Made by a program: the position numbers and the translations under genes | From: a virus | DNA length: 64,000 nucleotides | IMG/VR virus record: IMGVR_UViG_3300036790_000551 | Location: 1-64,000 of that record | Strand: one strand, 5' to 3' | The notes under the pieces: model-generated | What the model was told of the DNA's origin: nothing | Database searches by the model: none | What the model saw: the letters and a program-made list of their open reading frames with translations, nothing else | Shown: one piece after another, positions 31,343 through 36,373 of the stretch | Layout of the letters: every line of letters starts with the position of its first letter | How positions within the stretch are numbered: position 1 is the first letter of the stretch

Positions 31343-31579
31343 ATGGCGTACATTCCCGTGGCTCCCGAACTGGCAGAGAAAAGAGCGAGGCTCCAAGAGA
31401 ACCTCATTGAGGCCGCTGCGGCTCTTGGACGAGCGAAGGCCCTCGCCGATGAAATCGGTGTAGAGTTCACTTTCCTGGACCGGACGTACCATCCGAAGCA
31501 ACAGAAAGTCATCGAGGGCGGTTGGGACTACGAAGACGCTGATGACTGGCAGAGTTCCGGTCCTGGGATTGGGTGTTGA
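31343..31579 (+). CDS. WxxS..C family small protein A
   Basis: helix...ADEIGVEFTF...WQSSGPGIGC*. Confidence 0.7.
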   Translation: MAYIPVAPELAEKRARLQENLIEAAAALGRAKALADEIGVEFTFLDRTYHPKQQKVIEGGWDYEDADDWQSSGPGIGC

Positions 31580-31616
31580 TGTGTGGGAGCACATCGGACA
31601 GACTGCTCTAGGGTCC

Positions 31617-31871
31617 ATGACCAAGGACGAGGGCCAGCAGCGAGCCCAGGAACTCTTGAGCCAGGCCGAGAAGTTGGTCCGTGAGGCCCAGGACATCGGC
31701 GAACACTTCGGCTTCGACCTCAACTTTCTCGGTGCCCGCTACGACGGAAGTGATGAGATGTGGAGCGTCACTCGGTTCGAGCATACCGTCGAGTGGTCTT
31801 CGTCCTCTTTCTGTATCGAGGACCTCGGCCCGCAGGACTTCAAGCGTCGGATGGAGGGAAAGAGACCGTGA
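31617..31871 (+). CDS. WxxS..C family small protein B
   Basis: QELLSQA...GEHFGFDLNFLG.RY...WSSSSFC; alternative start 31581. Confidence 0.65.
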   Translation: MTKDEGQQRAQELLSQAEKLVREAQDIGEHFGFDLNFLGARYDGSDEMWSVTRFEHTVEWSSSSFCIEDLGPQDFKRRMEGKRP

Positions 31872-32212
31872 TGGACGATAAAAAGAAGACCGAACTGCAG
31901 AAGGAAGCGCAGTCGCTTCTTAGCGAGGCCAAGAAGTTATTGAATCAGGCAGGAGCGCTCGCTAGTCAGGGCGGCTTCACCCTCCATTTTGCGGGCGGAG
32001 GCGACTACATCCCGAAGAAACTCATGAACCTCGAGTACTGGCGCGCCCTCGCTGTCGAGGAACTCAAGCAGGAGGGAATAGAGGACCCGGATGAAGAGAG
32101 GGTCAACGACCTAGCCACCGACATGCGTGGCGACTGCGACATTCCGTACACGTATCTTGAGTACGCCGATGAGGACGATGGCGACGTCTGGTGGCAGCCC
32201 TCAAGTTGCTGA
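31871..32212 (+). CDS. WxxS..C family small protein C
   Basis: QSLLSEA...ASQGGFTLHFAG...WQPSSC*. Confidence 0.7.
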   Translation: MDDKKKTELQKEAQSLLSEAKKLLNQAGALASQGGFTLHFAGGGDYIPKKLMNLEYWRALAVEELKQEGIEDPDEERVNDLATDMRGDCDIPYTYLEYADEDDGDVWWQPSSC

Positions 32213-32228
32213 GGGGCTTGGTTTCATC

Positions 32229-32694
32229 CATGCTTATCCGGTTAACACCCAAGGAGTGACGTAATGCGCAAGAAAGATGAGCTAGACAAGAAGAACACCT
32301 GCATGTCGCACGCCCACTCCAAAGAAATGGTGTTCGTGCTGCTGAGCCGCGATGCGGCGGCGCCTGTCGCTATTCGTGCGTGGGTCGCCGAGCGCCTGCG
32401 GCTCGGCAAGAACGTCGAAAGCGACGAGCAGGTCGTCGAGGCGCTGGCGTGCGCGCAGACGATGGAAACCGAGGGACGCAAGTGGGTTGGCCATCCCGAG
32501 CACTATCCGTTCGGCATGGGTGAGGAATCGCGGCGGTTGCACCGTGAATACGACCGACTTGTTCGCGAGCAAGCGGCCGGAGCCAAGAATGGCGCAGAAG
32601 TCCGCAGGTTGACTGACGAGTGCGAGGCGAAGGGCATCATCCTTGTCACGGGTGGCGAGAACCTGTGACGTTGGGTGACAACCGGATAAGCATG
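32229..32694. mobile_element. non-autonomous insertion cassette (MIC/MITE-like) with one passenger gene
   Basis: TIRs 32229-32252 and 32671-32694 (22/24 match); GTTTCATC direct repeat at 32221-32228 and 32695-32702; no transposase. Confidence 0.85.
32264..32668 (+). CDS. passenger protein of the cassette
   Basis: AAGGAG RBS at the TIR edge; EMVFVLLSRDAAAP.AIRAW motif. Confidence 0.7.
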   Translation: MRKKDELDKKNTCMSHAHSKEMVFVLLSRDAAAPVAIRAWVAERLRLGKNVESDEQVVEALACAQTMETEGRKWVGHPEHYPFGMGEESRRLHREYDRLVREQAAGAKNGAEVRRLTDECEAKGIILVTGGENL

Positions 32695-32722
32695 GTTTCA
32701 TCTACACGGGAAGGATTCACGA

Positions 32723-33043
32723 ATGCCTATGAAGTCTACGGACAAGCATGAGAAGTCTACGGACAAGCATGAGAAGCACCTACAGACGCTCCTGGTGAAG
32801 GCCCAGGAGGCATTGGACGAGGTCAAGCACTATGCCGTGCTTCACAACCTGGAGTTCGAGTTCGCAGGCCTCCGTCGAGGCTTGGAGGGTAGAGACTACG
32901 GACCCGTCACCCGAGAGGACTTCGGTGGCGAGGACGATGAGTATCTCCAGCGTGAAATCAAGGCCGGCCGATACAGCGTCAAGGTAAGCAGCCTCGACTT
33001 CGATAGCAAATGGATGGGCTCCTGGTCCCCGGGATGCGGCTGA
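32723..33043 (+). CDS. WxxS..C family small protein D
   Basis: QTLLVKA...AVLHNLEFEFAG...WMGSWSPGCG*. Confidence 0.7.
   Translation: MPMKSTDKHEKSTDKHEKHLQTLLVKAQEALDEVKHYAVLHNLEFEFAGLRRGLEGRDYGPVTREDFGGEDDEYLQREIKAGRYSVKVSSLDFDSKWMGSWSPGCG
32731..32772 (+). repeat. perfect 21-bp tandem duplication
   Basis: GAAGTCTACGGACAAGCATGA x2 (KSTDKHE x2). Confidence 0.9.
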
Positions 33044-33046
33044 GCC

Positions 33047-33448
33047 GTGACCGACGATGTTCATGAACCGGGACCTGTCAGACCGCTGACTGCGGTCGAA
33101 CTCCGACGGGAGGAGGGCCATGCGAAGATGCAGGCGCTCCTGGTCTCCCTCAAGGAGACCATCGACGTCATGTGGGACGTCGCGACTGAGCACGGCATCG
33201 AACGGGTCGAGTTCATGGGAAACTACCTCCACTTCGGGACGGACTTCGGGTACGGCAACTGGGACAGTTTCTCTAATCGCTTTGTCAAGACCGAGGATGG
33301 GTTCGAGGCCGCTGTCGGCGGTCCGGTTCTCAACGATGAGTATTGGTCGCAATCCTCCTATGGCTGCTGGATTGATGATAAGGCTCGGGCGTGGATGTGG
33401 GGACCTGACCCTGCGAAATGGCGGAAGACGAGTTACGATGAAGACTGA
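33047..33448 (+). CDS. WxxS..C family small protein E
   Basis: QALLVSL...ATEHGIERVEFMGNY...WSQSSYGC. Confidence 0.65.
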   Translation: MTDDVHEPGPVRPLTAVELRREEGHAKMQALLVSLKETIDVMWDVATEHGIERVEFMGNYLHFGTDFGYGNWDSFSNRFVKTEDGFEAAVGGPVLNDEYWSQSSYGCWIDDKARAWMWGPDPAKWRKTSYDED

Positions 33449-33472: not shown

Positions 33473-34468
33473 ATGCTTCTCATCGGTTCCAAGGCGCTGA
33501 GGCTTCGAGGCATCGACACCGGACGGCCGCCTCTCGACGTCGACGTCATCGCGACCTTCGACGAACTTGGCAAACTCACGCGATGGATGTCGGCCCGCAG
33601 TCGGACGGTTTCGATTCCCCTCTCCGTCAACAAGACGGTCCTTAAGTCTGTTGATGGAACGATAGTTGAGGTCGAGATTGCCTGGCCGGACACCGCGGCC
33701 CACTCCCTCCTCACCGAGGGGAGCGTCTGGGCCCCTGACGTCAAGGACGACTGGTTGATGTCCGCGAACGGGTTCCCGCATCCGTTCGACGTTCAGGTCG
33801 CCACCCTGGACCAACTCTATGCACTGAAGATGTCCCATCGGTACCTGAAGAACAGTCCGCACTTCCTGAAGACGATGCGTGACATCCAACTGATGCGGAG
33901 CATGGGTGCCAAGGTCGTCAGCGCAGACTGGCTGAAGCGGCGTGAACTCGAGACCTACACCTACAAGCATCCGAAGTTGAACGTGATGAAGAAGGACTTC
34001 TTCACGGGCGACGGCGTCCAGTACGTCTTCGAACACGACGACATCCACGTCGCGATGGCTCACTTCAGCGGTAAGTGTGGTGACCCTGTTCCTGCCTACA
34101 CCCTCTACGCTAAGGACGGTGAGCAGGTTAAGAGCGACAAAGTCAAGTTCCTCTCTCTCTCAGAGGATGTTCGCCTCTACGGCGTCCTCGAGGAGGCCCA
34201 GGTCCTGGCCTTGGAGCGCAGCCAGATACCCTTCCGTGGTAAGGTGGAGGCACGTCGGTCGTTCGACATCGCGCTGATGAAGGTCTGTACCAGCATCACG
34301 AGCGGTTGGTTCCGGGAGTATGCCTGGGAGAATTTCGACCGCGTGAACCTGCTCTACGAGAACGACTACGTAGAGCGTTTCTGGAGGGCCGTCGACGACG
34401 GACACGTGAGGAAGATTGCTGAAGCCGACCGACAGGACCCTGTTAGTAACCCACAAAAATTGCCTTGA
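33473..34468 (+). CDS. Pol-beta-type nucleotidyltransferase-like protein
   Basis: LIGSKA.........PLDVDVI (GS + DxD); LKMSHRY; FEHDDIH; EEAQVLALER; CTSITSGWFR. Confidence 0.65.
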   Translation: MLLIGSKALRLRGIDTGRPPLDVDVIATFDELGKLTRWMSARSRTVSIPLSVNKTVLKSVDGTIVEVEIAWPDTAAHSLLTEGSVWAPDVKDDWLMSANGFPHPFDVQVATLDQLYALKMSHRYLKNSPHFLKTMRDIQLMRSMGAKVVSADWLKRRELETYTYKHPKLNVMKKDFFTGDGVQYVFEHDDIHVAMAHFSGKCGDPVPAYTLYAKDGEQVKSDKVKFLSLSEDVRLYGVLEEAQVLALERSQIPFRGKVEARRSFDIALMKVCTSITSGWFREYAWENFDRVNLLYENDYVERFWRAVDDGHVRKIAEADRQDPVSNPQKLP

Positions 34469-35342
34469 CGGCACCGGTTCCGCGTTCGTCTTCGTGAAGG
34501 CCGGCGGCCTGCAGGCCAACGTTCGCTTTCGGTTGCCGAACAACTGCGTCCTCAAGCCCAATGACGTCATGGGCCTCGACGAGGTGTGGTTCGTTGACGT
34601 CTGCCCATCGGACCTGACCGACCCGGCCGGCGGACTTCCGTTTCGGGTCATCGACCATCACGTGACGAACGTCCGTCGATTCGATGGTGACCCCCGCTGC
34701 ACGTTCTCCCTGGACCACAGCGGAACGTCGCTGTTGGCCCGAGAGGTCGGGCTCGTGGGCTTTGACCGCCTAGTTCGGGCCCTGGAGGCGTACGACCTCG
34801 GGCGGTTCCATGACGCCGACGGCATGCTGCTAGCCGACCTCGCCTCGACATACGCCCAGGACGAGATGCTGAATCGACTCGTCGGAAGGCTTTCGAAGTC
34901 TGAGAACCTTTACGACAGCCATCCGATTCTCGATAGCGAGTACTTCGTGGCCCGCGCCGAGGGGGTCGCGGGAATGCGTGATGATTGGGCCCGGCGCTGC
35001 GCCCGGTCTGCCTACGTCTTCATCCTCGATGACAACTATGCCCTCGACGACCGCCGGTTCGTGGCAGCCCTCGCGGTCTGTCCGCCTAACTGGACAAACG
35101 CCGTCTCCCAGGCCATCATGGACCGGGACGACTTCAGGTACTGCGGAGCGGACGTGTCAGTGCAGGTCGCCGTCTGCGTCGACCCAAACGGTGGACAGGT
35201 GAGCCTGCGGACCCGGGACGACGCCGTCGACTGTAGTAGGATAGCCGAGGGCTTCGGCGGCGGCGGGCACCGTAAGGCAGCAGGTTTTCGGACCGTCGGC
35301 GGCACCGGCCTCCGCGGTCTCATTGAGGAGATATTCGAATGA
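34416..35342 (+). CDS. DHH/DHHA1 phosphoesterase
   Basis: H..CLDG, FVD, IDHH, SG..L, SLR, GGGGHRKAAGF. Confidence 0.88.
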   Translation: MLKPTDRTLLVTHKNCLDGTGSAFVFVKAGGLQANVRFRLPNNCVLKPNDVMGLDEVWFVDVCPSDLTDPAGGLPFRVIDHHVTNVRRFDGDPRCTFSLDHSGTSLLAREVGLVGFDRLVRALEAYDLGRFHDADGMLLADLASTYAQDEMLNRLVGRLSKSENLYDSHPILDSEYFVARAEGVAGMRDDWARRCARSAYVFILDDNYALDDRRFVAALAVCPPNWTNAVSQAIMDRDDFRYCGADVSVQVAVCVDPNGGQVSLRTRDDAVDCSRIAEGFGGGGHRKAAGFRTVGGTGLRGLIEEIFE

Positions 35343-36373
35343 GCCTCAGGGTTTACGGCGACAGTCTGAACTTCATCCATCGGGCGTTGATGCGAGAGTT
35401 AGCGGAGGACCCGGAGTGCGAGAGCGCTCCCCGAGGCAAACCAATCAAGGAACTCATCGCGTCGTCGTTCACGTTGACGGACCCTCGAAACCGGCTCATT
35501 ACGAGTCCGGCCCGGAAGATGAACTACGGGTTCAGCGTCGGGGAGTTCTGTTGGTACCTCCGGGGAGACACGGACCTCGAGACGATGGTCTATTACAACA
35601 AGCGGATGGCCCAGTTCTCTGATGACGGAAAGACCATCAACTCCGCCTACGGAGACAGGATGTTCAATCCGACGCCGGGATACGCCTACGGCGTCATCAA
35701 CGGGAAGTTTGGGCCATACTCCCCGTTCGAGTTTGTGATGGCGGAACTCAAGAGGGACCCCGACAGTCGTCGGGCCGTGATGCACATTAACCGGTCCCAT
35801 GACCTCATCAACGCTGTCTCCAACGGGTCCAAGGACGTCCCCTGTACTATGTCCCTGCAACTCCTCGTCAGGAACCGGAAGTTGCATATGCACGTGCTGA
35901 TGAGGAGCAGCGACATCAATTGGGGGCTTCCTCACGATGTCTTTAGTTTCACGTGCCTCCAAGAGGTCTTTCTCTATGAGTTACAGGCCGCCGGGGTGCC
36001 GGTCGATGACCTGGGGGAGTACCACCACACGGCAGGCTCCCTCCACCTCTATGAGCCATTTTACGGCCTGGCCAAGGAGATAGCGGCCGAGCCCCTTGAG
36101 ACCCCTGCTCCGATGAGCCCGTTCACTCTGGCACAGGTCCAGGGACTGGCTGAGGTGATTGAGCCGGCCATTCGGAACGGAGACCGAGGCAACCTCCTCA
36201 ACGTTGGAACCTCAGAGGGAACGGAGACGCTCTCGTGGATGACCGACCGCCTACTCGACCATCGCGTGAAGCGAGAAGCCGAGGAGGTTGAGCGCAACCG
36301 AAAGGACGCCGCTTTGAACGAACTTAGTCGATTGTCTGAAGAGATTCTTGCCGAGAAGGAGACCGAGAAGTGA
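35339..36373 (+). CDS. thymidylate synthase homologue, probable dCMP hydroxymethylase or hydroxylase
   Basis: SAYG.R, DSRRA, KDVPCT, MRSSD..WGLPHD (Asp at the ThyA Asn177 position), GSLHLY. Confidence 0.85.
   Translation: MSLRVYGDSLNFIHRALMRELAEDPECESAPRGKPIKELIASSFTLTDPRNRLITSPARKMNYGFSVGEFCWYLRGDTDLETMVYYNKRMAQFSDDGKTINSAYGDRMFNPTPGYAYGVINGKFGPYSPFEFVMAELKRDPDSRRAVMHINRSHDLINAVSNGSKDVPCTMSLQLLVRNRKLHMHVLMRSSDINWGLPHDVFSFTCLQEVFLYELQAAGVPVDDLGEYHHTAGSLHLYEPFYGLAKEIAAEPLETPAPMSPFTLAQVQGLAEVIEPAIRNGDRGNLLNVGTSEGTETLSWMTDRLLDHRVKREAEEVERNRKDAALNELSRLSEEILAEKETEK

Follow-up and report, generated by a model that had tools for sequence, protein, structure and literature searches.

Passenger-carrying IS1595 elements and cassettes that lack a transposase are both known in bacteria. 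The former, called 'transporter' elements and comprising the ISNwi1 and ISNha5 groups of bacterial genomes, were reportedly described by Siguier, Gagnevin and Chandler in 2009; among the latter is MIC231, the mobile insertion cassette of IS231 in Bacillus cereus. From mycobacteriophages, Sampson et al. are said to have described in 2009 the ultra-small elements MPME1/2, which are ~440 bp long and have short inverted repeats and one small ORF. The gain by phages of single accessory genes ('morons') is, to our knowledge, mostly unexplained. Insertion sequences are considered uncommon in phages, and vMITEs, non-autonomous elements with terminal inverted repeats (TIRs) and target duplications, have been found in IMG/VR phages, 99 of them in phages assigned to Acidobacteriae; the paper that describes them mentions neither IS1595 nor cargo (PMC11602168). 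Mobile insertion cassettes (MICs) of the Tn3 type have been described in Xanthomonas (PMC4337579). Our literature search found no description of a phage-borne family of cassettes with IS1595 ends.

We analysed a 64-kb stretch of viral DNA (64,000 nucleotides, hereafter the window) that belongs to the 92,831-bp record of a soil phage. A 466-bp segment of it is very probably derived from a DDE transposon of the IS1595 family as a non-autonomous element with a single gene, i.e. a mobile insertion cassette. Like the MICs, it has IS ends around a passenger gene, no transposase and presumed mobilisation in trans, whereas the MICs belong to another IS family and have bacterial hosts. The MIC traits that we found in it are IS-type inverted repeats and a duplication without a transposase, together with a passenger unrelated to transposition, the family of which is also found free. 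The transporter IS1595 elements resemble full-length phage relatives of the segment (L024, L031, L116 and others) in their ends, in the 8-bp duplication and in having passengers inside; they keep the transposase and are bacterial, whereas the window cassette has lost the transposase and has a phage host.

Comparison with ISAcr1, a member of the IS1595 family annotated by NCBI on Acidiphilium plasmids, revealed agreement at 13 of 15 core end positions and an 8-bp duplication in both. However, ISAcr1 is a 1080-bp autonomous IS of bacterial plasmids with a transposase gene only, whereas the element in the window lacks a transposase, holds a passenger gene and is phage-borne. MPME1/2 reportedly differ in having 11-bp repeats, no 8-bp duplication and an ORF thought to serve their own mobility. 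MITEs are non-coding by definition, and we rejected a MITE identity because one 134-aa ORF, of a conserved protein family with more than 600 members, fills 86% of the element.

The window's element is one ordinary member of its end family. Recognised by its ends and 8-bp duplications, this one transposon family marks dozens of unrelated genes in at least 120 phage contig stretches. It offers a concrete route for phage-to-phage gene flow, and whatever its ends enclose becomes a candidate accessory or anti-defence gene.

Anatomy and insertion site of the element

Reading of the sequence from 31900 to 33100, together with a repeat finder, placed the element at 32229-32694. With the flanking C/G included, the inverted-repeat arms (32228-32252 and 32671-32695) are 25 nt long and 92% complementary; counted from CATG, the repeat is 24 nt long and 22 of the 24 positions are paired. 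The left arm reads CATGCTTATCCGGTTAACACCCAA, its inverted counterpart forms the right arm, and both arms are directly abutted by a perfect 8-bp direct repeat (Table 1). All 15 family-invariant positions are kept at both ends. The two mismatches between the arms fall at positions 16-17, which are variable across the whole end family, and thus do not represent decay. A single sensible ORF lies between the arms, with AAGGAG 7 nt 5' of its ATG and its stop codon 2 nt short of the right arm. These results confirmed the structure proposed in the first-pass annotation, namely 24-nt TIRs and an 8-bp duplication around a single 134-aa gene.

Even when up to 3 mismatches were allowed, the 15-nt terminus was found at only two sites in the window, one per strand, and the element is single-copy in the viral record. 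No DDE_Tnp_IS1595 domain was detected in this record, which is ~45% complete by CheckV estimate, and a blastn search of the element against 50,697 GenBank phage records gave no match.

Table 1. Features of the element and its surroundings (positions in the window)
Feature	Position	Strand	Remark
Upstream flanking gene, 114 aa, of a small paralogous array, outside the element	31868..32212	+	phrog_899, E 1.8e-5
Terminator-like hairpin where the upstream gene ends; its GCTTGGTTTC tail contains the target site	32198..32215	+	consensus match only, no proof of function
Left target-site duplication GTTTCATC	32221..32228	.	8 bp = duplication length in 59 of 79 listed relatives
Left terminal inverted repeat (IRL), 24 nt	32229..32252	+	first 15 nt = family-wide core CATGCTTATCCGGTT; 162-end consensus; resembles the ISAcr1 end
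Leader with Shine-Dalgarno AAGGAG (32251-32256, overlaps the inner TIR) at 7 nt from the start codon	32251..32263	+	identical in L155, one mismatch in L146
Cargo gene, 134 aa, all-helical, modules ~1-76 and ~80-134	32264..32668	+	without Pfam, NCBIfam, PDB or BFVD match
AGCT, one of three in the 64-kb window	32280..32283	.	AACT in the L146 copy
Right terminal inverted repeat (IRR), 24 nt	32671..32694	-	26/30 identical to one end of the autonomous L024 element
Right target-site duplication GTTTCATC	32695..32702	.	abuts the right arm
Downstream flanking gene, 106 aa, also of that paralogous array	32723..33043	+	phrog_899, E 1.5e-3

The target was a 40-nt spacer between two co-oriented small phage genes. 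The cargo ORF is co-oriented with both, and the ribosome-binding site of the downstream gene was left undamaged by the insertion. Both neighbours belong to an array of five small co-oriented genes (31343-33448) that have in common W..S..C-type C-terminal endings. Weak matches to phrog_899 were obtained for four of the five (E 1.8e-5 to 6e-3), and a 41-nt repeat, D1 (71% identity, 263-nt spacing), also marks the paralogy of the array. The first pass had placed the insertion within a WxxS..C array, and the phrog_899 matches and the 41-nt repeat bear this out.

The region in which the cassette landed is one of replication and nucleotide metabolism, with genes for a helicase, a ribonucleotide reductase and a thymidylate-synthase-like protein. 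Downstream of the array, positions 33473-36373 encode a DUF7277/DUF7275 protein (331 aa), a DHHA1-domain protein (308 aa) and the thymidylate-synthase-like protein (344 aa). The match of the last to PF00303 is merely moderate (E 1e-17), and it could be a nucleotide-modifying relative.

Counts of 4-nt palindromes in the window revealed 3 AGCT sites, where ~152 were expected, and 0 GATC sites, where ~230 were expected; the remaining palindromes occur at 0.74-1.38 of expectation. The depletion of AGCT and GATC suggests strong selection against two restriction-type sites. The scarcity of AGCT, with one site inside the cassette, had been remarked on earlier and agrees with these counts. The cassette makes up 0.73% of the window, and the chance that at least one of the three AGCT sites falls inside it is ~2%; its AGCT points only weakly to a foreign origin or to incomplete amelioration. 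The first pass had called the same site consistent with a recent arrival. Such an arrival is weakly suggested by the AGCT and by the perfect duplication, and the nearest other copy is 89% identical.

The end family and its IS1595 relatives

The exact 15-nt terminus was found in at least 120 contig stretches of IMG/VR. Each + end match was paired with the next - match, which yielded at least 84 pairs, at least 79 of them unique, of 184-2253 bp. Among the 79 listed elements, 59 have a perfect 8-bp direct repeat directly outside the ends and 4 more have a repeat matching at 7 of 8 positions. The duplicated octamers differ from element to element and are unrelated, with A/T favoured at positions 2, 3, 6 and 7. 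Over 162 ends, positions 1-15 are 93-100% conserved, positions 16-19 are variable and positions 20-23 read CACA or CCCA. In several cases two to five elements share a contig (L071, L038, L016, L033, L082 and L096). The cassettes of L013 and L074 are 98% identical and lie at different sites, indicating that the family is currently active.

Single-gene members have a compact arrangement: the ORF starts 24-63 nt from one end, after a GGAG-type motif, and stops 5-41 nt from the opposite end, sometimes within the repeat itself. The longest ORFs of the 79 listed elements fall into 60 sequence clusters, so the same ends do surround other cargo in metagenomes, as the first-pass annotation had anticipated. 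Compared with MICs, the phage cassettes are distinguished by a conserved leader with a ribosome-binding site, by usually having one gene and by this diversity of cargo. A family-wide tally of in-gene and intergenic insertions and of cargo orientation was dropped, because the ORF caller yields spurious antisense ORFs in GC-rich DNA; the same caller mistook the right-hand neighbour gene of the window's own element.

We also searched bacterial genomes for the 15-mer. It was found in 1 of 401 sampled Acidobacteriota genomes, which is the level of a reversed-pattern control, and two matches in MAGs were solo ends with no partner. The end family looks mainly phage-resident, the bacteria sampled being of one phylum, Acidobacteriota.

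Each element of 1.6-2.25 kb codes for a protein of 343-357 aa with DDE_Tnp_IS1595 (E 1e-28 to 1e-34) and Zn_ribbon_IS1595 domains, and these proteins also match NCBIfam transpos_IS1595 (E 2e-54). All transposase-bearing elements have a common layout, consisting of the left end, a short leader, one to three small passenger ORFs, the transposase and the right end. In its ends, the L024 element comes nearest to the window's element (right end, Table 1), and its transposase shares 62% identity with the ISAcr1 transposase. Its first passenger, which is also 134 aa long, is unrelated to the window's cargo (E 45). Inside a 1983-bp element, L016:1267-2187 encodes a 307-aa protein in which an IS1595 zinc ribbon is combined with an HNH_3 endonuclease and an HTH, the DDE domain being replaced.

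The borders of ISAcr1 were read in NC_015181.1. The element has ends CTTGCCTATCCGGTTG...CCCA and is bounded by a perfect 8-bp duplication, GAATCAGC. Its agreement with the phage ends over the 15-position core comes with ...CCCA in common, and its subterminal CTACTAGAT is similar to the leaders of many cassettes. The end pattern of the ISSod11 group, which we take to be nnnGCnTATC, fits CATGCTTATC of the window's element and CTTGCCTATC of ISAcr1. The ISSod11 group was not recovered as monophyletic, and the IS1595 family is defined by 8-bp duplications and a transposase with Zn-ribbon and DDE domains (PMC8101967). The full-length phage elements have 8-bp duplications and a Zn-ribbon/DDE transposase and thus belong to the IS1595 family as so defined. 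In the window's element, the 8-bp duplication and terminal inverted repeats like those of a curated member are present and the transposase domains are absent. Because its ORF has no Pfam or NCBIfam match and transposase domains are present in full-length elements with the same ends, we regard it as a non-autonomous derivative and not as an IS. Taken together, the ends shared with IS1595 transposase elements, the ISAcr1-like ends, the 8-bp duplications around many different cargos and the further sites of the cassette described below uphold the first-pass view of a transposase-less cassette derived from IS1595 that brings accessory genes to phages.

Other copies of the cassette, its mobility and competing explanations

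We scanned metagenome contigs with an alignment of the cargo and obtained 80 loci, of which 8 had at least one end-core match at up to 3 mismatches. The locus L146 contains a 466-bp element with 89% DNA identity to the window's, a cargo 94% identical at the amino acid level and a leader with one change. This element is bounded by a GTTACATC duplication, and its flanks showed no similarity to those in the window by blastn or tblastx. A 463-bp version in L155, with 75% DNA and 72% protein identity, is bounded by GAATGAAG and also has unrelated flanks; left and right junctions as in L155 were seen in L159 and L162. Thus, cassette and cargo are found together at two other sites with unrelated flanks, demonstrating that they moved as a unit.

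The leader GGAGTGACGTAATG is common to the window-, L146- and L155-type copies, and cassettes of the same end subtype with other cargo (L020, L089 and L112) have a different one. As far as a shared leader can tell, these copies descend from one cassette lineage and have diverged since. The cargo protein tree supported the grouping of the window with L146 (99/98) and placed L155 without support; it gives no resolution between a single clade of the three cassette-borne copies and separate placements, or between one and several captures. At L159:2966-3500, on a 178-kb contig, the left junction and duplication are as in L155, the cargo diverges after approximately residue 99 and no right end lies within 3 kb. 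This locus may stem from a deletion, from recombination or from a chimeric assembly.

The phage itself was present in two soil runs, X1 and X2, the latter being an independent sample. One 37.9-kb contig from X1 runs across the whole 2.5-kb region with no differences. The X2 contigs break at the ends: the left flank stops at 32231, 3 nt into the end, and 100% identity was seen over the cargo interior (32264-32650). Further X2 contigs have the same ends around inserts of 188 bp and 1840 bp, indicating that the ends are multi-copy in the community and that an element of autonomous size is included. An empty-site allele, which the first-pass annotation had expected in related phages, did not turn up: IMG/VR yielded no relatives of either flanking gene, the reconstructed 24-nt empty-site junction had no exact match in the metagenome contigs, and the contigs of three soil runs contained no joint lacking the element, only other elements with the same ends.

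The likely history of a mobile insertion cassette at this locus can be outlined from these comparisons. Judged by the layout of the full-length elements, the most likely origin of the cassette is a passenger-carrying full-length element that lost its transposase gene. The cassette has retained the ~24-nt ends recognised by the transposase, the leader with its ribosome-binding site and a passenger. Its insertion into the 40-nt spacer between the small phage genes duplicated the 8-bp GTTTCATC. By analogy with the IS1595 family and with bacterial MICs, movement would require an IS1595 transposase of matching end type in trans, and its source might be an L024-type autonomous relative in the unsequenced part of the phage, a co-infecting phage or the host. 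The evidence for mobilisation in trans is indirect and consists of the three sites at which this cassette lies, each with its own duplication, and of the two sites occupied by the 98% identical cassettes of L013 and L074. Read-through transcripts of the replication-module operon presumably serve for translation of the cargo from its built-in Shine-Dalgarno, since a consensus scan revealed no promoter-like site inside the element and the cargo is co-oriented with its neighbours.

The arrival of the cassette by IS1595 transposition could also lie in the past, so that the window now holds an immobile, vertically inherited phage gene with old ends. The record contains no transposase, no empty site was found, no copy nearer than 89% identity was found elsewhere, and the identical phage with the identical insert recurs in an independent soil sample, all of which fit such a fossil. 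We nevertheless consider it doubtful, as the record in which a transposase was sought is less than half complete (~45%), the ends are intact at the 15 family-invariant positions, the duplication is perfect, autonomous-size elements with the same ends are present in the same soil samples, and near-identical sister cassettes at different sites indicate a family that is currently active.

Two further explanations are very improbable. An assembly chimera, in which the insert was joined to the phage contig through ends repeated in the metagenome, would account for X2 short-read contigs that break exactly at the ends, but the single X1 contig spans the region unchanged, the X2 left flank enters the first 3 nt of the end, the cargo interior is identical in X2, and a chimera would produce no perfect 8-bp duplication. 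A phage regulatory or structural signal (a terminator or operator pair, or the recombination sites of an integron-like or homing cassette) would agree with the overlap of the inner left repeat with the ribosome-binding site and with a position after a terminator-like hairpin, but it is contradicted by 8-bp duplications of unrelated sequence in 59 of 79 elements, by the same ends flanking IS1595 transposase genes and matching curated IS ends, and by their presence in phages with unrelated flanks.

Cargo of the window's cassette and of its sisters

A search with the cargo protein retrieved 618 homologues at E ≤1e-3; the best listed are 68-89% identical and nearly all 134 aa long. Among its invariant residues are C13, H18 and those of the motif HYPxGMGEESRRLH. 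The protein is modular: many phages have a ~76-aa protein that corresponds to residues 1-76 only, and residues 80-134 are fused to other, unrelated N-termini in L135:2102-2668 and L139:2270-2668, one of which has CxxC...CxC motifs; the signature of the C-terminal module in these two is HYPxGMGEESRRLH...GGENL. Among 15 full-length copies with readable context, 12 are free of the ends; these free copies belong to replication modules, and their neighbours are genes for an SNF2/ResIII helicase, ThyX or a family-A DNA polymerase.

The AlphaFold model of the cargo is all-helical with a disordered linker at 73-78 (mean pLDDT 75). Pfam and NCBIfam gave no match, and PHROGs gave only phrog_12354, 'transcriptional regulator', at E 0.003. 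A sequence-profile search of the PDB gave no hit with E ≤1. Foldseek searches of PDB and BFVD had a best E of ~2-3, and the absence of a match there is no proof of a new fold. A wide VIA-align comparison reached Z ≤5.3 with generic helical hairpins, and the ESM Atlas returned only unnamed viral clusters. The structure searches of PDB and BFVD thus gave no fold match in favour of a nucleotide-sponge protein, the kind of anti-defence protein with which the cargo was to be compared, or of any other named fold. We read the cargo as an ordinary small phage protein of the replication module that the transposon picked up once. An anti-defence role, suggested by association with the cargos of sister cassettes, seems rather unlikely.

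In domain scans of 55 single-gene cargos, those to which a name could be given were for the most part DNA methyltransferases (N6/N4, Dam-like and C5), together with Mom-like, PAPS-reductase-like, NADAR and MazG-like proteins and one TnpB. Judged by these predicted domains, the nameable minority of cargos is biased to DNA modification and counter-defence. A wider interpretation, which we offer tentatively and hold to be possible at most, is that the ends mark a largely phage-resident cassette exchange. A few IS1595 elements would supply the transposase, single-gene cassettes enriched in counter-defence functions would be shuffled between co-infecting phages, and the 134-aa cargo would be a new host-takeover or anti-defence protein. 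Such an exchange would be a transposon-based counterpart of integron cassettes, each cassette having a ready-made translation start, and the enriched cargo would be the DNA methyltransferases and the Mom, NADAR, MazG and PAPS-reductase-like proteins.

The TnpB-like gene is the sole cargo of a 1156-bp member at L061:1253-2408. It encodes a 367-aa protein with Cas12f1-like TNB and OrfB_IS605 domains, and the element is bounded by the 8-bp duplication ATATCAGA.
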